Shown: one piece after another, positions 6,545 through 47,401 of the stretch | Numbering within the stretch: position 1 is the first letter of the stretch | Layout: each line of letters begins with the position of its first letter | Assembly: GCA_965656855.1 (NCBI GenBank) | Contig: CBFHML010000097.1 | Coordinates: forward strand, 31,250-95,249 | DNA length: 64,000 bases | Source: Roseovarius sp. | GTDB taxonomy: Bacteria > Pseudomonadota > Alphaproteobacteria > Rhodobacterales > Rhodobacteraceae | Direction: 5' to 3' | The notes under the pieces: model-generated | Database searches by the model: none | What the model saw: the letters and a program-made list of their open reading frames with translations, nothing else | Told to the model about the DNA's origin: nothing | Translations under genes and position numbers: made by a program

Positions 6545-6733
6545 ATGAAGAAACTCGTTCTCGCCGCTGCGTTTTCTGCTGCTGCAACCGCTGGCTTTGC
6601 TGGCAACATCGAAGAGCCCATGATGGAAGCGCCCGTCGTCGTTGAAGAAGCGAATGCAAGCTCTTCGGCTGCTGGCGTCTGGATCCCGCTGGTCCTGCTG
6701 GCCATCGTAGCAGCTGCTGTCGCCGCTGACTAA
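6545..6733 (+). CDS. small (62 aa) secreted/membrane-anchored hypothetical protein
   Basis: GGAGGA RBS precedes the ATG. Signal peptide MKKLVLAAAFSAAATAGFA, an acidic linker, then a C-terminal hydrophobic helix WIPLVLLAIVAAAVAA. Followed by a terminator. Confidence 0.5.
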   Translation: MKKLVLAAAFSAAATAGFAGNIEEPMMEAPVVVEEANASSSAAGVWIPLVLLAIVAAAVAAD

Positions 6734-7936: not shown

Positions 7937-8752
7937 TCAATCTTTGAGCGGCTTTTCATGCGTTCCAAGAGCCTCTGCGAGACGTGTTGCCGCAGATCCG
8001 GGCTTTAATGGCTTTTGTTGGGTCTCTGCTGGAGCCCATCCAGTAAGTGTGATGATCTCAAATGTTGCAGGTGCGCGCCCATCCGGGGAGCGGTAGGAGG
8101 CGGTATAGATTTCACAGGCCTTTGCTAAAATGTCTCGCCGCATAAAGTGCCGCGGCCGGGTCGACAATGCGTTGGCCTCTCCCATTGCGCGCAGATCGCG
8201 CATCAGGGCCAAGGGATCTGCATAGGATGCGGTTAGCGTAAAACTGTCCGCCACTGGCAGGGCATACCCTGCTCGCTGCAACAATGCGCCCAGATCCCTG
8301 ATCTCTCCCATTGGGGCAACGCGGGGTGATAGCCCGCCGCGCAGATCCGACTCCGCCTGCGCCAGAGCACTGCGCAACTCGTGCAAGGTTTGTCCGCCAA
8401 AGAACACGCCAAGAAACAGCCCGTCAGGACGAAGCGCGCGCCGGGCCTGGATCAACTGCCCTACCGGGTCATCGGCCCAATGCAGGCATAGTGCATGAAT
8501 GATCAGGTCGTGCGCCTCTTCTGGAATGCCAAGCGTGTCGCTGTCCTCGATATGCAGCGCTTCGGGAAAATGCTGTTGCCACAAATCCGGAAAACCACCG
8601 ATCACAAGGGGCGCGGTAAAGGATTTGTTAACCAAAGAGAGCCGATCCTCGACCTCCTCGATGGCGGCATGATGCAAGAACAGGTCCCGCGGGTCGCCAG
8701 CGCGGCGGCGGTTTCGCAAAAGTGCGGTTCTGTCGGTCAGGCTACGAGACAT
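7937..8752 (-). CDS. class I SAM-dependent methyltransferase
   Basis: The 432-aa ORF was trimmed to MSRSLTDRTALL (ATG at 8752). Contains DLIIHALCLHWADDPVGQL..ALRPDGLF, a Methyltransf_11-like pattern. Divergent from comF. Confidence 0.75.
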   Translation of the reverse strand: MSRSLTDRTALLRNRRRAGDPRDLFLHHAAIEEVEDRLSLVNKSFTAPLVIGGFPDLWQQHFPEALHIEDSDTLGIPEEAHDLIIHALCLHWADDPVGQLIQARRALRPDGLFLGVFFGGQTLHELRSALAQAESDLRGGLSPRVAPMGEIRDLGALLQRAGYALPVADSFTLTASYADPLALMRDLRAMGEANALSTRPRHFMRRDILAKACEIYTASYRSPDGRAPATFEIITLTGWAPAETQQKPLKPGSAATRLAEALGTHEKPLKD

Positions 8753-15934: not shown

Positions 15935-18412
15935 ATGAGCGACAACGACGGAAAGAAAACTCTGGGTGTGCGCAGCGGTCCCCGTGCGGGAAACGTGAAG
16001 CAAAGCTTCAGCCATGGGCGCACCAAGAACGTCGTGGTGGAGACGAAGCGCAAACGTATCGTGAAACCCAAGCCGGGCGCAGCACCCGGCGCGGCCAACA
16101 AGACTGTGAATCTTCCTGATTCCACACGCCGCCCTGCGGGCATCTCTGACAATGAGATGGAACGCCGGATGAAGGCGCTTGCTGCCGCCAAAGAGCGTGA
16201 AGTCGAGGAAAGTGCCAAGCGCGAAGCCGAGGAAAAGGCCCGCGAAGAAGACCGTCAGCGCCGCCGCGAAGAGGCAGAGGCCAAGGAGCGCGAACAGCGC
16301 GAGGCCGAGGAACGCGCCAAGGCCAAAGCCGCAGAAGAAGAACGCCAAAAGCTTGCGGCCGCGTCCGCGACGCAACAGGCCGCCGCCGCACCCCCGGCAG
16401 AAGAGCCCGGTGCAAAGCAGGATCGCACGATCAAGCAGGCGCCGCGCAAGCCAGAGCGCACAGATCGCGATGACACGCGCAGCCGTGGCAAAGCCCGCGA
16501 CGACAACAGCCGTCGTGGTGGAAAGCTGACGCTGAACCAAGCGCTTTCGGGCGGTGAAGGTGGTCGTCAGAAATCCATGGCCGCCATGAAGCGCAAACAA
16601 GAACGCGCCCGGCAAAAGGCCATGGGCGGAGCGCAAGAGCGTGAAAAGGTCGTGCGCGACGTGCAATTGCCCGAGACCATCGTGGTCAGCGAGCTCGCCA
16701 ACCGTATGGCAGAGCGCGTTGGCGATGTGGTCAAGGCGCTGATGAACAATGGCATGATGGTGACGCAGAACCAGACCATCGACGCCGACACCGCCGAACT
16801 CATCATCGAGGAATTCGGCCATAAGGTCGTGCGCGTGTCTGACTCGGATGTTGAGGACGTCATTCACGCCGTTGCCGACAAGGACGAAGATCTGCAATCG
16901 CGTCCGCCCGTCATCACGATCATGGGCCATGTCGACCACGGCAAGACGTCGCTCTTGGATGCGATCCGCGATGCCAAGGTCGTCGCCGGCGAGGCGGGTG
17001 GCATCACCCAGCATATCGGCGCCTATCAGGTCATGACAAAGGGCGGCGCCAAGCTGTCCTTCCTCGACACGCCGGGTCACGCGGCCTTTACCTCCATGCG
17101 TTCGCGTGGGGCGCAGGTGACGGATATCGTCGTGCTCGTTGTGGCTGCGGATGATTCGGTCATGCCTCAGACCATTGAGGCGATCAATCACGCCAAGGCG
17201 GCACAGGTCCCGATGATCGTGGCGATCAACAAGATCGACAAGCCCGAGGCAAATCCCGACAAGGTCCGCACGGGCCTCTTGCAGCACGAGGTCGTCGTTG
17301 AGGCGATGTCGGGCGAGGTGCAGGATGTCGAGGTGTCTGCCCAGACGGGTCAGGGCCTGGACGAGTTGCTTGAGGCCATCGCGCTTCAGGCCGAGATCCT
17401 TGAACTCAAGGCAAATCCCGACCGCGCCGCCGAAGGTGCCGTGATCGAGGCACAGCTTGATGTGGGTCGTGGTCCCGTTGCCACCGTTCTTGTCCAGCGC
17501 GGCACGCTCCGTCAGGGTGATATCTTTGTTGTGGGCGAGCAATACGGCAAGGTCCGCGCGCTGATGAATGACCGTGGTGAGCGGGTGAAAGAGGCCGGTC
17601 CATCCGTGCCCGTAGAGGTGCTTGGTCTCAACGGCACGCCAGAGGCTGGTGACGTGCTCAACGTCGTCGACACAGAGGCGCAGGCGCGTGAGATTGCTGA
17701 ATACCGCTCCAAGGCTGCCAAGGAACGGCGCGCCGCAGCGGGGGCTGGCACCTCGCTCGAACAGCTTCTTGCGCAGGCGAAAGAGAACGAGAACGTCAAG
17801 GAACTGCCCATCCTGATGAAGGCCGACGTGCAAGGTAGCGCCGAGGCGATCGTGCAGGCGATGGAGAAGATCGGCAACGAAGAGGTCCGCGTCCGCGTGC
17901 TGCATTCGGGCGTCGGTGCCATCACCGAATCCGATATCGGCCTCGCCGAGGCATCAGGCGCACCGGTCTTTGGCTTTAACGTCCGTGCCAACGCGCCCGC
18001 CCGCAACAGCGCCAACCAAAAGGGCGTCGAGATCCGCTATTACTCGGTGATCTATGACCTTGTGGATGACGTTAAGGCGGCGGCAAGCGGCCTTCTGGGC
18101 AACGAGATCCGCGAAAAGTTCATTGGCTACGCGCAGATCAAAGAGGTGTTCAAGGTCACAGGCGTCGGCAAGGTCGCTGGCTGTCTGGTCACCGAGGGCA
18201 TCGCCCGCCGCTCTGCCGGGGTCCGTCTGCTGCGCGACGACGTGGTGATCCACGAAGGCACGCTCAAGACGCTCAAGCGCTTTAAGGACGAGGTGCCAGA
18301 GGTCCAGTCCGGTCAGGAATGCGGCATGGCGTTCGAGAACTACGACGACATCCGCGAAGGTGACGTCATCGAAATCTTCGAGCGCGAAGAGGTCGAACGC
18401 AACCTGGCCTGA
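15935..18412 (+). CDS. infB: translation initiation factor IF-2
   Basis: Charged N-terminal region, then G-domain motifs [22 protein letters not shown] and NKID. Confidence 0.95.
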
Positions 18413-18441
18413 TCTGGGGTTTGGGAGAGAGATTTTGGAAG

Positions 18442-18470
18442 GGGGCTGGTTTTTTGACCGGCCCTTTTTG
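18442..18470 (+). terminator. probable infB terminator
   Basis: GGGGCTGGT-TTTTTG-ACCGGCCC stem with one mismatch, followed by TTTTT. Confidence 0.55.
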
Positions 18471-18533
18471 CGTTTGAGGTTGATACAAGAAAAGCGATGT
18501 AAGGAGTTGATGCTTACTGAAAATTTATGCCGT

Positions 18534-19574
18534 TCAGCTGACGCTCACGCGGCCTTCACGAACAAATTTCAGAAGTGTTTCGAGTCTCCTAAAGATGGCT
18601 AAGAATATCTTAGCTTCGACAATCTGATTGCCTTCAATTATTCCGGTGAAGCTCCTTCCACCCGGTATATGAAGAGCTGACACTAATACATCAATTAGTT
18701 TAAAAAGCTCTGTTTCTTCGGTTGACGAAGGTGAGGAATAGCTATCCGCAGTAATTTCAAGCCAACCTTTGCTTTTCATATATTCACGGAGTTTCTTATA
18801 ATTTTCCCTAGCTTCATCGTAGGTATTTTCGAATTGCCTTATTTGGTTATCGACAGCGTCAAAAAGATTTCTAGAGCCCTTTACAGTTATCTTACCAGGA
18901 GAAGCCCATTGCACTGCTGCTAAATGAGGGCGTTCATGGTATGGTAAAACAGACTTAAGATCGTTGAAGAAGCCTAAGTAACTAGAGCCTCCTCGAAAAG
19001 GCTTGTCACGGAATGCCGAAACATAATTAACAGGCGCGACTGAAGCTTGAGTATTCTGAAGGTTGATCACAGCTTCATGGAAAACATATACATCGGAATA
19101 TCTTGAGTAAAATTCTTTAAATTCTTTCATCTTCCATTGACCATCAATTGGTATCTCGTGCGTTGACGGTGGCTGTTTTACAAAAGAATAATCACGATTA
19201 TGATCACGTGCAAAAAACCCCTTGCTAGGAATGTAATCGTCGCAAATTCTCCCTAAAAATGGTCTTAACTCGATATCTTTTTCAAAAATTGCGGATGCAT
19301 CTGCTTCATAGTACTGAACCGAGGGTGCGTATACATAGACAAAGTGGAGGTCCGAACGCCCAAGAAAATAGTCTTGCGTTGTTTCTCTTGTGGCAGAAAC
19401 AACGAGATATTTTTCAATTTGGCCATCTTCATCAGCTATCGCGGAAGCGAAGAAATAGGTAGTTCCCCGCGTGTTCGACCTCTTCAAAAGGACCAATACG
19501 GCAAAATCTGCGTCTACAAGAATACTCTCGTAGGATGCTTTAGTTTTCTTTAAGACTTGCGCATCGGTACTCAT
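18534..19574 (-). CDS. hypothetical protein, 346 aa, no recognisable family
   Basis: It is the only long ORF across the AT-rich stretch. Its start overlaps the upstream ORF stop (ATGA). I saw no Walker, HNH, HEPN or PD-(D/E)xK motif. Confidence 0.7.
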   Translation of the reverse strand: MSTDAQVLKKTKASYESILVDADFAVLVLLKRSNTRGTTYFFASAIADEDGQIEKYLVVSATRETTQDYFLGRSDLHFVYVYAPSVQYYEADASAIFEKDIELRPFLGRICDDYIPSKGFFARDHNRDYSFVKQPPSTHEIPIDGQWKMKEFKEFYSRYSDVYVFHEAVINLQNTQASVAPVNYVSAFRDKPFRGGSSYLGFFNDLKSVLPYHERPHLAAVQWASPGKITVKGSRNLFDAVDNQIRQFENTYDEARENYKKLREYMKSKGWLEITADSYSSPSSTEETELFKLIDVLVSALHIPGGRSFTGIIEGNQIVEAKIFLAIFRRLETLLKFVREGRVSVS

Positions 19575-19876
19575 AGCTTTGGCACATGTTTGACGATATC
19601 TTCGGAAATATCATGCTCGGCGACCCTCCAAAGGTGGAGGTGACCATCTCCATCGAGACGTGATGGTCCTGCATCAGGGGGCAGGTCCAAACATACCGCA
19701 GGTTTATTTTTAAATGGTGAAACCAAGGCCATTTTTCGCGCACGCTCCTCGGTAAACAGGGAGCATGAAGCCCAGTCACAGGGGTCTTTTTTCTCGGGAC
19801 ATGGCTTGCCTCGCCCGTGTTGGCTTGAGAAAGCCCTTTCGTCCACGCTGCTGCTTTGAGCGCTATACTTAACCAT
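19571..19876 (-). CDS. hypothetical small protein, 101 aa, no recognisable family
   Basis: GGAGG sits 6 nt upstream of the ATG at 19876 (MVKYSAQ...). Its stop overlaps the start of the 346-aa ORF. GC3 by hand count is about 50%. Confidence 0.5.
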   Translation of the reverse strand: MVKYSAQSSSVDERAFSSQHGRGKPCPEKKDPCDWASCSLFTEERARKMALVSPFKNKPAVCLDLPPDAGPSRLDGDGHLHLWRVAEHDISEDIVKHVPKL

Positions 19877-20127
19877 AACAAACCTCCAAAAGCCTTGGCG
19901 GCGCGTCCGGGTAGCACTGCCGTTTGGACATTCTGGCGGCAACTCTTCCGCAAACTGTAAACTCGAATGTGACATGCTGGAACAGATGCTACAAATTTTC
20001 TGGTGAAGCAACAGGCGAAGTTGTATTTACAAAAAACATACAATCGAGTGATGTTTACAGCTTACGTTCTCTCAAGTTTTGAACTCAGTTACCTATACAA
20101 ACGTACAACCATCAAACCAACCCCCCC

Positions 20128-20526
20128 TCACAACCAATCCCGCAAAATCGGGATGAGCGGCACGTCTGCCGGGGGCATGGGGTAGTCTTTCAGGTCGTTG
20201 GGCCGCACCCATTTGAGCGCCTGACCCTCCTTGCCCTGCGGCACGCCCGCCCATTTCCGGCAGGCGAATAGCGGCATCAGCAGGTGAAAATCCTCATACC
20301 CGTGGCTCGCGAATGTCAGCGGCGCAAGGCAGCTTTCCCATGTGTCGATCCCCAGCTCCTCTTGCAGCTCGCGGATCAGAGCCGCCTCTGGCGCCTCTCC
20401 GGTCTCGACCTTGCCACCGGGGAATTCCCACAGGCCTTCCATCGACTTGCCGGGCGGTCGCTGCGTCAACAGCACCCGCCCCTCCACATCAATCAGCGCC
20501 ACGGCAGAGACCAAAACGATCTTCAT
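20128..20526 (-). CDS. mutT: 8-oxo-dGTP diphosphatase-type NUDIX hydrolase
   Basis: Nudix box GGKVETGEAPEAALIRELQEELGI. Start trimmed to MKIVLVSA, which overlaps the argJ stop (ATGA). Confidence 0.8.
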   Translation of the reverse strand: MKIVLVSAVALIDVEGRVLLTQRPPGKSMEGLWEFPGGKVETGEAPEAALIRELQEELGIDTWESCLAPLTFASHGYEDFHLLMPLFACRKWAGVPQGKEGQALKWVRPNDLKDYPMPPADVPLIPILRDWL

Positions 20527-33201: not shown

Positions 33202-33816
33202 TCAGCGTGAGATGGTGCAGCAGCCCGAAACAAAGCTAACGCCGCTTTGCTCGGTCAGGAAGATATCGACATCAATGCCATAGGCGCGATCAGACATGCC
33301 GTCGGTACACAGGTCGCGACGAAAAACCGAGGTAAGAACCCGCGCTTCGCTTTCGCCAAATATGGCATAGCGATCGGTCCGATTTTCGGCGACGACGGTG
33401 TAGAGATTTCCAAAACTGACGGGATCTTGCCCGCTTCGCGAAAATTCGGCCTTTTGGTCCGAGATAAGGGACAAGGACCAGAATGGCTCTGTCCCGCTGC
33501 AATTTAATGGCCGGGGAAGAACATCGCCTGGCTGTCCCGGTTGCCGGGCAAGGTAGCGCATCGCAACCCAGCCTGATCGCTCGCGCATGTTGATCCGGCC
33601 CCAGTCGCCGCTTTCGTCGCGGGCAACGACCTCGATACCCTCAACGTCTGAGGCCAATCTGTCGAGAATACTGGCAGAGGTATTGGGCGCGGCGCGGACA
33701 TTCAGCACGTCTGTTTGCGCCACTCCGGATACATCGAAGAAAGCTGGCAGAGGCTCTGCCCGAGCGAATGTGCCAAAAAGGATCACGCAAACGGTGAAGG
33801 CTGCACGGACGATCAT
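33202..33816 (-). CDS. secreted SH3-like domain protein (COG3650-like)
   Basis: Trimmed to MIVRAAFTVCVILFGTFARA (signal peptide). SH3b-like part: LNVRAAPNTSASILDRL....VEVV....DWGRI. The start overlaps the upstream stop (ATGA). Confidence 0.6.
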   Translation of the reverse strand: MIVRAAFTVCVILFGTFARAEPLPAFFDVSGVAQTDVLNVRAAPNTSASILDRLASDVEGIEVVARDESGDWGRINMRERSGWVAMRYLARQPGQPGDVLPRPLNCSGTEPFWSLSLISDQKAEFSRSGQDPVSFGNLYTVVAENRTDRYAIFGESEARVLTSVFRRDLCTDGMSDRAYGIDVDIFLTEQSGVSFVSGCCTISR

Positions 33817-34634
33817 CGACGCGCGTCCCAGCTGCTGGAGGCGTGTTGCCTTGTATAGAATTCTCCCATCAGACCCAGCGTAAGAAGCACGGCCCCGACG
33901 ATCAACGCGTACTGATAATCGGTGTTGCGGGGAAAATAATTTTGAAACACGAACCCTCTGCATTGGTCGATGATATGAAAAAGTGGGTTCCAGTCGAACA
34001 TCATCAACATGAAATTAGGCAGGGTATTGGCCACAAAAAGCTTTCCTGACGCGATCATGTTGGCACGTGTATAGATCACCTGAACGAGGTTCATCGCTGT
34101 CGGAAACCATGGTTTCAACGCAAGAAACAGTAGTCCGACGGCACATCCCGTGAACCACGCCAATAAAAGCATACCGAACGCACCGACAGGGTCGAAGATT
34201 TCGATGCGCACAAAGGCAACATGGTAGACGAAGAGGATAACGAAAGCGGAAATCACCTGAATGTAGAGACAGCCAAGCGCGGCCGAACAGATAGAAATCA
34301 TCGTATTCATCGGAGCGTGTTGCATCATCGGAGATGCCCCTCCGTCAGCGCCCGAGACAGCGCCCAGTGCCTTGATGTGCGTGAGGTACAGAAAAACGCC
34401 TGACATCATGTATAGCATGAAATCGCCACGCAGCTTGGCGCCACGCAATCCCATCACTGAAAACATCACGTAAAAGGCGAGTACAAAGACCACAGCCGTC
34501 ATGATATTCACACCGAGCGCCATAAAGGCGTTACCATGTGTCTTGCGGACATCCCGCACAGTTGTGTGATAAATCAGTTCGCCGATTGTGATCGCGGACC
34601 CGATAAGAGATTTTCTGCGTGTATTTTGAAACAT
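33813..34634 (-). CDS. ABC-2 type transporter permease (KpsM-like polysaccharide export permease)
   Basis: About six predicted TM segments and an N-terminal cytoplasmic stretch IGELIYHTTVRDVRKTHGNA, typical of ABC-2/KpsM-type permeases. No adjacent ATPase gene. Confidence 0.65.
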   Translation of the reverse strand: MFQNTRRKSLIGSAITIGELIYHTTVRDVRKTHGNAFMALGVNIMTAVVFVLAFYVMFSVMGLRGAKLRGDFMLYMMSGVFLYLTHIKALGAVSGADGGASPMMQHAPMNTMISICSAALGCLYIQVISAFVILFVYHVAFVRIEIFDPVGAFGMLLLAWFTGCAVGLLFLALKPWFPTAMNLVQVIYTRANMIASGKLFVANTLPNFMLMMFDWNPLFHIIDQCRGFVFQNYFPRNTDYQYALIVGAVLLTLGLMGEFYTRQHASSSWDARR

Positions 34635-34772
34635 CGCCTGCCGCCAACTTTGTCGATTTCGATCTTTTTTACACGGATTTCTTGCCGTCCGGTTAGTGAC
34701 GCAGCATAAGAGGCACGACGTACTCTCGCAACATGCCGGTTGTTTTCACTGTAAAAGCATTGGAGCAGATCA

Positions 34773-35570
34773 TTGGATTACGACAAACTTGTCACGGTTT
34801 TTCGCCGTCTTGCGCTGGAGGCGGGCGACAAGATTATGGAAATCTACGAGGCCGACGATTTCGACGTGAAGGTTAAATCTGATGAAAGCCCGGTGACCGA
34901 GGCGGATGAGGCGGCTGACGCGCTGATCTCAGCGGGGCTGAGAGCTGACTTTCCTGACGTGACACTGATTACCGAAGAGCAGGCAGCATCGCATCAACTG
35001 CGCGCCGGGACATTTCTGATTGTCGACCCTCTGGATGGTACAAAAGAGTTCATCAACAGGCGTGGTGATTTCACTGTCAACATAGCGCTTGTCGAGGATG
35101 GGGTGCCCACCCGCGGTGTGGTGTACGCCCCTGCAAAGGCGCGCATGTTCTTTACGCGGGCCGATGGTAGTGCCGTCGAAGAGACCGGGCCGTTCGACAA
35201 GCTCAAGCTGGGTGATCTGCGGGAAATTCGTGTTTCCGAGCCGGACAACACAGCGTTGATGGTTGTCGCAAGCAAGTCCCACCGTGATCAGGCAACAGAT
35301 GATTACATCTCGAAATACGCAGTCAAAGACATGAAAAGCGCTGGTTCGTCGCTCAAGTTCTGCCTGCTGGCGACGGGCGAGGCGGATCTCTATCCGCGCG
35401 TTGGGCGCACCATGGAATGGGATACGGCCGCTGGTCACGCTGTTCTGCAAGGCGCGGGTGGGCTTGTGGTGCGGTTCGATACGCATGAGCCGCTTACCTA
35501 CGGCAAAGAAGATTATGCGAACCCGTTTTTCATCGCGTACTCTCCACAGGTCGAGCTAAAGTCAGCGTGA
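34773..35570 (+). CDS. cysQ: 3'(2'),5'-bisphosphate nucleotidase
   Basis: Inositol-monophosphatase-fold motifs: DESPVTEAD, VDPLDGTKEF, WDTAAGHAV. TTG start. Confidence 0.8.
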   Translation: MDYDKLVTVFRRLALEAGDKIMEIYEADDFDVKVKSDESPVTEADEAADALISAGLRADFPDVTLITEEQAASHQLRAGTFLIVDPLDGTKEFINRRGDFTVNIALVEDGVPTRGVVYAPAKARMFFTRADGSAVEETGPFDKLKLGDLREIRVSEPDNTALMVVASKSHRDQATDDYISKYAVKDMKSAGSSLKFCLLATGEADLYPRVGRTMEWDTAAGHAVLQGAGGLVVRFDTHEPLTYGKEDYANPFFIAYSPQVELKSA

Positions 35571-47315: not shown

Positions 47316-47401
47316 TGGTGCCCAGGAGAGGACTCGAACCTCCACGTCCTTGCGGACACTAGCACCTGAAGCTAGCGCGTCTACCATTCCGCCACCTGGG
47401 C
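47316..47401 (-). tRNA. tRNA-Leu (anticodon CAG), class II with long variable arm, CCA encoded
   Basis: The reverse complement GCCCAGGTGGCGGAATGGTAGACGCGCTAGCTTCAGGTGCTAGTGTCCGCAAGGACGTGGAGGTTCGAGTCCTCTCCTGGGCACCA folds as a cloverleaf. Anticodon loop TTCAGGT, T-loop GGTTCGAGTCC. Confidence 0.9.

Follow-up and report, generated by a model that had tools for sequence, protein, structure and literature searches.

What occupies the junction between mutT and infB in the 64,000-nucleotide stretch of Roseovarius sp. DNA analysed here (the window), and how did it come to lie there? Between the stop codon of mutT and the terminator of infB is a GC-poor segment with two overlapping genes, A and B. A sequence-only reading had described them as an orphan, undescribed cassette of foreign appearance, of the kind typical of defence or toxin–antitoxin (TA) islets, with its function entirely open. 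Judged by homology, the two-gene insert is very probably a divergent member of PD-T4-10, a described and validated family, and the cassette is likely to be a horizontally acquired TA/abortive-infection (Abi) module of that family.

Relationship of the two genes to PD-T4-10

PD-T4-10 is one of 21 systems obtained by functional selection for phage resistance in E. coli (PMC9519451), and its founder comes from strain ECOR65 (QOYX01000006; Vassallo et al. 2022, Nat Microbiol, PMC9519451). The founder comprises two overlapping open reading frames (ORFs), neither with a predicted function, and the HHpred tables for both proteins hold nothing above ~20% probability (PMC9519451). Founder B is toxic and is neutralised by A; A is not deletable, and deletion of B abolishes resistance (PMC9519451). 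The protection takes the form of abortive infection and acts against T-even phages (PMC9519451). PADLOC represents the system by models PDLC04023–04026, and a 2024 survey enters it as two overlapping genes without assigned function. A literature search turned up no later mechanistic work on PD-T4-10 or DUF6575. The labels "undescribed" and "function entirely open" therefore have to be dropped: the family was found and validated in E. coli, is present in PADLOC, and has a founder that acts as a toxin (B) and antitoxin (A) in abortive infection.

Gene B of the window (positions 18534–19574, minus strand) encodes a 346-residue PD-T4-10B homologue, a putative toxin. The protein matches the PADLOC model PD-T4-10_B (PDLC04024) with E 7e-34, residues 11–345 aligning with positions 15–346 of the 353-position profile. 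A profile of 46 B sequences aligns with founder B over 316 columns (hhalign 98.9%, E 1.1e-17). Residues L19, Y69, L76, P116, D144, Y163, G196-x-S198, S225-P226-G227, and R329-R330 are universal, founder included. B is no orphan, since its family contains 921 clusters (50% identity) at E≤1e-3, with 191 at E≤1e-30, and these 921 clusters show that PD-T4-10 reaches far outside the enterobacteria, to marine Rhodobacterales and related metagenomes. Among homologues with DNA, the nearest share ~68% protein identity with the window, so that synonymous sites are probably saturated. A search of 185,579 species genomes with two peptide patterns of the window's own subfamily gives 8 with a match, a lower bound for the system, and tblastn of the gene B product against plasmid and phage collections gives no match.

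Scans of the A and B proteins against Pfam, NCBIfam, and PHROGs give nothing past threshold, and searching the PDB by sequence with the two profiles returns noise only. DUF6575 (PF20215) does not match window B in Pfam; on founder B it scores 22.9 bits, under its gathering threshold (GA) of 26.6, and covers residues 43–117 only. A VapD/Cas2-like endoribonuclease was considered for B residues 243–299 and rejected. NCBIfam VapD reaches 20.2 bits against a cut-off of 100, and the region is predicted with high confidence to fold as helix–helix–loop–helix, not as the ferredoxin-like β-α-β-β-α-β arrangement. A weak RRP7 match was likewise dismissed.

A 48-nt stretch of the founder's A/B junction was rebuilt from the published cloning primers and used to locate founder-type loci. 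It is found in 13 of 5,426 complete E. coli genomes, and one such locus was retrieved (L031, NZ_CP019267.1; retrieved loci carry L numbers). Here A has 171 and B 363 residues, the two genes overlap by ATGA, and the pair lies inside a P2-like prophage, flanked by the genes for the replication endonuclease and the portal, the position of the known P2 hotspot (Rousset et al. 2022, as cited in PMC9519451). In L031:7275–9026 the founder PD-T4-10 adjoins an AIPR-family (Abi-like) gene and a frameshifted dinI-like gene, which makes a small two-system defence cluster.

Profile comparison indicates that component A of the cassette is homologous to PD-T4-10A, with weaker support than for B. A profile of 20 A sequences aligns with founder A over 108 co-linear columns (hhalign 75.7%, E 2.4e-5), and the family and founder A have in common the motifs L-P-x-C-P, W-R-F, C...S-[LM]-[FY], and G-H-x-D-F. 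Residues P13, C16, P17, R31, F49, C66, S72, G103, and H112 are universal, founder included, with D or H at 114. The PADLOC model PD-T4-10_A (PDLC04023) is matched by 3 of the 20 A-family members, and the other PADLOC models (5,027 in total) by none; in Pfam none of the 20 is matched at E≤10. Taken together, the PD-T4-10_B match and the divergent PD-T4-10A bear out the expectation of a foreign, coupled two-gene defence/TA islet between housekeeping genes.

The 5′ end of gene A

Gene A, the putative antitoxin gene (19571–19975, minus strand), encodes a divergent PD-T4-10A homologue of 134 residues. The sequence-only reading had placed two same-strand ORFs of 101 and 346 codons here, the first with a GGAGG-N6-ATG start. 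The 346-residue frame stands. The upstream frame is longer than supposed, because conservation extends upstream of ATG 19876 and most homologues have 134 residues: E10, L12-P13, C16-P17, and W30-R31 all lie before this ATG and are conserved even in ~30%-identical homologues. The start was reset to 19975 accordingly. The GGAGG preceding ATG 19876 is not a ribosome-binding site, since it is part of codons TGG-AGG for the invariant Trp30-Arg31, and the homologues, which use CGN for Arg31, lack the motif.

Automatic gene callers mis-call gene A systematically, in that they cut it to 101 residues, lengthen it to 148–216 residues, or miss it. Both the window's own record and L010 annotate it as 101 residues, and it is missed outright in L001, L003, L004, and L007. 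The mis-called or missed copies are at window 19571–19975, L001:5600–6004, L003:4630–5004, L004:4628–4996, and L007:4627–4998. PADLOC-type rule-based calling that needs both components would miss the window system, because the PADLOC A model fails on window A. More generally, defence finders will under-count PD-T4-10, because gene callers mis-call or miss A and the PADLOC A model is blind to most such A proteins.

A and B as a unit

The stop codon of A and the start codon of B overlap in an ATGA (19571–19574, minus strand). This overlap, already pointed out from the letters alone, is present in the sequence and would couple translation of the two genes. It recurs in the E. coli founder (cloning primers; L031) and in L001, L002, L003, L014, and L015. 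We compared 14 A–B loci, which include Leisingera, Tabrizicola, Cypionkella, Phaeobacter, Celeribacter, Citreimonas, Vannielia, Roseovarius, and Sphingomonas genomes and metagenomic contigs. In all 14, an A-like ORF lies directly upstream of B and ends at or overlaps the B start. The pair is GC-poorer than its flanks in every host compared.

Two natural fusions bear on how A and B work together. In L013:2397–3782, from a Tabrizicola metagenome-assembled genome in which a frameshift or assembly error is possible, a single frame of 470 codons spans A and full-length B. In P0210, the A domain (residues 10–133) is joined directly to B profile positions 132–343, so that it stands in for the N-terminal β-rich domain of B, and the C-terminal two-thirds of B are kept. 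The fusions argue for direct physical interplay of A and B. They also suggest that B consists of two modules, with the essential function in the C-terminal part. This C-terminal module (residues ~132–346), which carries the GGxS, SPG, and RR motifs, would be the effector part.

The pair is found in several mobile or defence-like contexts. In L002 its neighbours are type I restriction–modification (R-M) genes with a resolvase. The Leisingera-type locus L001 has a HerA-like ATPase (PADLOC E 5e-14), a D12 methyltransferase, a DUF4365 protein, and IS66 next to the pair, L004 a terminase with IS1595, and L007 an integrase. In L032 it falls within an IMG/VR provirus call and has the layout of the Phaeobacter locus.

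Upstream of gene A is an AT-rich leader of 152 nt (19976–20127, minus strand; GC 0.40), which extends from the mutT stop codon to the A start. Read-through transcription into the cassette from argJ–mutT is possible, because the leader is on the same strand as these genes. No Rhodobacterales A gene has a clear or strong Shine–Dalgarno sequence; the E. coli founder has AAAGGAG. An Rfam search returned nothing.

A variable junction between mutT and infB

The segment that contains the pair (18470–20127, 1,658 bp) has a GC content of 0.437. The mean over 1,181 equal-sized windows elsewhere in the 64 kb is 0.574 (sd 0.021). The segment thus has z = −6.5, a value that substantiates the low GC estimated earlier by hand. 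The segment has the lowest GC content of the window; every other equal-sized window is at 0.523 or above. GC at third codon positions is 0.36 in gene B and 0.50 in gene A, against 0.67–0.80 in infB, mutT, argJ, nusA, and secA. 

On the left, the boundary is the stop codon of the mutT-like NUDIX gene (20128–20526, minus strand; 132 residues; Pfam NUDIX_4 E 9e-28), and allele divergence begins 1 nt past this stop. On the right it is the intrinsic terminator of infB, a hairpin with a T-run (18441–18469, plus strand), where all alleles rejoin; the hairpin AAAAAGGGCCGG...CCGGCCC is common to the window, L008, L019, L020, and L030. These limits agree within 2 bp with those of the sequence-only reading, and they delimit the segment in which the window differs from its ~97%-identical relative L008.

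Junction relatives were taken as contigs whose ArgJ matches that of the window exactly or at ≥90% identity. Named members of the ArgJ cluster, and the taxa with the closest A–B homologues, place the host lineage in the Paracoccaceae/Rhodobacterales. The cassette is strain-specific: in close relatives whose flanks are 81–98% identical, the two breakpoints enclose at least five different, unrelated cargos. The flanks of L008 are 97.8% and 95.7% identical to those of the window, and homology ends at 20127 and returns at 18469; between these positions L008 has a 1,228-bp cargo (L008:4639–5865) coding for an unrelated 376-residue protein. L019 (complete chromosome CP121311.1) carries a DUF4325 and HATPase_c pair (L019:8626–10039), L020 a DUF6236 gene (L020:8626–9868), and L030 a gene for a 515-residue hypothetical protein (L030:6626–8462). 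At least two more cargos are found in L022 (6626–7255) and L023–L026, and a 147-residue gene is among the junction cargos. The cargos of L019, L020, L030, L022, and L023–L026 all rejoin at the same base ahead of the infB terminator. Of the five spanning cargos, four are GC-poor (0.39–0.45), and that of L030 has a GC content of 0.51. An allele identical to the window's is present in L010, which is from another sample.

The mutT|infB junction is thus an integrase-free variable hotspot, since close relatives hold unrelated cargos between the same breakpoints. Eight metagenomic contigs with one ArgJ allele all stop ≤1 kb from the mutT stop, as expected from assemblers meeting population heterogeneity. 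An exact 25-mer of the mutT 3′ end has no match in JGI metagenome contigs. No alternative cargo corresponds to a known PADLOC system, which makes them candidates for new accessory or defence genes and the hotspot a source of such candidates: the 376- and 515-residue hypotheticals, DUF6236, and DUF4325 with HATPase_c. The L019 pair shows a weak match to the DrmA N-terminus (E 2.5e-6).

How did the cassette reach this site? As the sequence-only reading had it, there is no integrase or transposase in the segment or its flanks (ORF list), no nearby tRNA (the sole tRNA of the window is at 47316, 27 kb off), and no direct repeat at the edges; target-site duplications, terminal inverted repeats, and boundary repeats are likewise absent from both edges. 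A site-specific integrative element (island, integron cassette, or insertion sequence) was rejected on these grounds. An integron attC site was also rejected, as the edge motif departs from GTTRRRY and is present at a single edge. In the relatives, too, no recombinase or repeat pair flanks the junction cargos. Homologous recombination is therefore the simplest explanation, and the cassette probably reached the site through the conserved flanks (argJ–mutT and infB) and not by site-specific integration.

The relatives have in common a leader of ~70 nt past the mutT stop, with two copies of a perfect 12-bp palindrome, TTTTGTACAAAA, ~41 nt apart, and their cargos diverge right past a copy of it. 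The palindrome is at L019:8641–8652, at 8644 and 8685 in L020, and at 6644–6655 and 6685–6696 in L024–L026 and L030. L023 and L024 have the same cargo and differ by exactly one repeat unit. In the window, the first ~36 nt of the leader (20092–20127) are a degenerate remnant of this common leader, and 20092–20103 (CGTTTGTATAGG) is a decayed copy of TTTTGTACAAAA. The palindrome is missing from the opposite edge and shows no enrichment in the rest of the window; it may be an operator or a recombination site.

Three further features were seen along the window. A perfect 13-nt inverted repeat (GAAGAGGTCGAAC / GTTCGACCTCTTC) connects the 3′ end of infB (18386–18398) with the interior of gene B (19473–19485); roughly 0.03 such pairs per 2 kb are expected by chance. 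The second-lowest GC stretch (~33700–35400, 0.51–0.52 vs the mean of 0.574) is far milder than the cassette. Within infB, positions 16050–16650 have an A-over-T skew of up to 0.75 and a GC content of 0.63–0.68, an ordinary feature of the Lys/Glu/Ala/Arg-rich low-complexity N-terminal region of IF2.

Function of the cassette

By analogy with the founder, A and B would be translated as a coupled pair, and A (134 residues) would bind B (346 residues) and keep it inactive. Phage infection would then lift the neutralisation by A, and the freed B would arrest or kill the cell before the phage cycle is completed. Toxicity of B, rescue by A, and Abi protection are known for the founder, from which we infer the same role for the window copy; neutralisation through direct A–B contact would be consistent with the natural fusions. 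Both frames are intact in the window and contain all family-invariant residues. On balance, we lean towards the view that the cassette works as an anti-phage Abi module in its host.

Several observations weigh against this assignment. The founder is only ~20% identical to the window proteins. Residues G145, W147, K322, and G341 are near-invariant in the Rhodobacterales-centred B set and differ in the founder, so the activities of the window-clade B and founder B could differ. The window's own A gives no direct match to the PADLOC A model, and its homology is argued from profile–profile and transitive evidence. In A, moreover, no DNA-binding domain of the kind seen in typical type II antitoxins can be recognised. 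Recognisable defence genes are present in only 2 of the ~8 distinct neighbourhoods examined, and a sigma-70 promoter and terminator scan of the cassette strand found none.

The sparse defence neighbourhoods would also suit a selfish TA addiction module, which persists by post-segregational killing or hitch-hiking and gives its host no phage protection; a TA-like architecture in a recombination-prone variable site fits this as well. However, the founder came from a selection for phage resistance, and deletion of B abolished the protection. In addition, some homologues lie beside R-M or HerA-type genes or in the P2 defence hotspot, and addiction would be of little gain at a single-copy chromosomal site. 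We therefore regard a purely selfish module as unlikely.

Equally doubtful is that A is a small enzyme or a ligand- or metal-binding sensor, which controls B catalytically or senses a phage cue in a type VII-like manner. The universal residues C16, R31, C66, S72, H112, and D/H114 resemble an active or metal site. AlphaFold gives confident models of both proteins (pLDDT 87.6 for A and 88.0 for B), and Foldseek finds no significant structural neighbour for either. For B there is no neighbour in the PDB (best E 0.075, TM 0.15). For A, no fold match reaches E≤1e-3 in two independent libraries (PDB and BFVD), and TM is ≤0.42. The best named matches of A, all sub-threshold, are of the ADP-ribosyltransferase (ART) fold and recur in both libraries: IcmQ, LT-A, CNFy, and Tpt1/KptA in the PDB, and Tpt1 and DarT in BFVD. 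The matches are weak (IcmQ, prob 0.33; DarT, prob 0.30, rmsd 3.2 Å over 68 columns; E≥0.4 throughout). A canonical type II antitoxin with an N-terminal helix-turn-helix (HTH), ribbon-helix-helix (RHH), AbrB, or PHD domain was rejected for A, as none of the 20 members has a Pfam match and the predicted fold is mixed β/α.

In the A model, the first strand carries R31, a strand that leads into a helix carries S72, and a later strand opens with H112, an order that mirrors the R-S-E motif order of ART-fold proteins. Conservation covers Arg31 and Ser72 but no catalytic Glu: His112 stands in its place, and the founder has Ala for Ser70 of the 'SxS'. There is no Pfam or PDB sequence signal for A, and the A–B fusions fit simple binding equally well. 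The predicted ART-like resemblance is thus a lead only, and Cys16, Cys66, His112, and (Asp/His)114 could instead be read as a metal site. It is improbable that PD-T4-10A is a minimal Cys/His-dependent or ART-like enzyme or sensor whose pocket (C16, R31, C66, S72, H112, D/H114) modifies B or reads a phage-induced molecule or protein, with B as a new toxin family. If so, PD-T4-10 would be a new enzymatic (type VII-like) or ligand-gated class of TA defence, and the unmatched fold of B (pLDDT 88, no PDB neighbour) would represent a new toxin family.

That the cassette is a decaying remnant of a once-functional element, as its strongly non-host composition, the lack of a detected promoter or Shine–Dalgarno sequence for A, and the degenerate leader palindrome might suggest, is very improbable, because both frames are full length and intact with the family-wide invariant residues retained, the ATGA coupling is kept, an identical copy exists in an independent sample (L010), and the absence of a strong Shine–Dalgarno sequence is a family trait. 

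A horizontally acquired PD-T4-10-type TA/Abi module thus remains our preferred explanation. The main added value over the published description lies in the invariant residues, the fusions, the ART-like or metal-site lead for A, and the hotspot with its alternative cargos. The universal residues and the two A–B fusions can guide mutagenesis and structural work on PD-T4-10.

Comparison with known systems

A resembles ART-fold proteins (DarT, Tpt1/KptA, IcmQ, and LT-A) in its sub-threshold similarity in two libraries and in the strand order of Arg, Ser, and His; it differs from them in having no catalytic Glu, no significant match, and no sequence-profile signal. By fold, B is unmatched among known toxin and antitoxin superfamilies (Foldseek).

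With type II TA and Abi modules the cassette has in common a small bicistron with the neutraliser first and the genes overlapping, toxicity and rescue as seen in the founder, horizontal movement, and association with mobile elements. In contrast to type II TA, A has no HTH, RHH, or AbrB domain, and by sequence both A and B are outside known toxin and antitoxin superfamilies (Pfam, NCBIfam, PHROGs, and PDB).

The mutT|infB junction resembles P2 and chromosomal defence hotspots in its fixed pair of conserved flanking genes and in its interchangeable, GC-poor, mostly hypothetical cargos of 1–2 kb. Unlike the P2 hotspot, it is flanked by the chromosomal housekeeping genes mutT and infB and not by phage genes, with no integrase or recombinase nearby. 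The window's relatives are further set apart from P2 and known hotspots by a short common leader with the duplicated 12-bp palindrome at one edge.

The closest likeness is to the PD-T4-10 founder. In both, A precedes B and overlaps it in an ATGA; the homology spans all of B and the core of A; and the sizes are similar (134 + 346 residues in the window, 171 + 363 in the founder), although window A lacks the ~43-residue N-terminal extension of the founder. The hosts differ, a marine alphaproteobacterium of the Paracoccaceae as opposed to an enterobacterium, as do the sites, a chromosomal core-gene junction without a prophage as opposed to a P2 prophage hotspot. Nevertheless, both pairs are rare and patchy, lie in a variable hotspot, and are GC-poor relative to their hosts.

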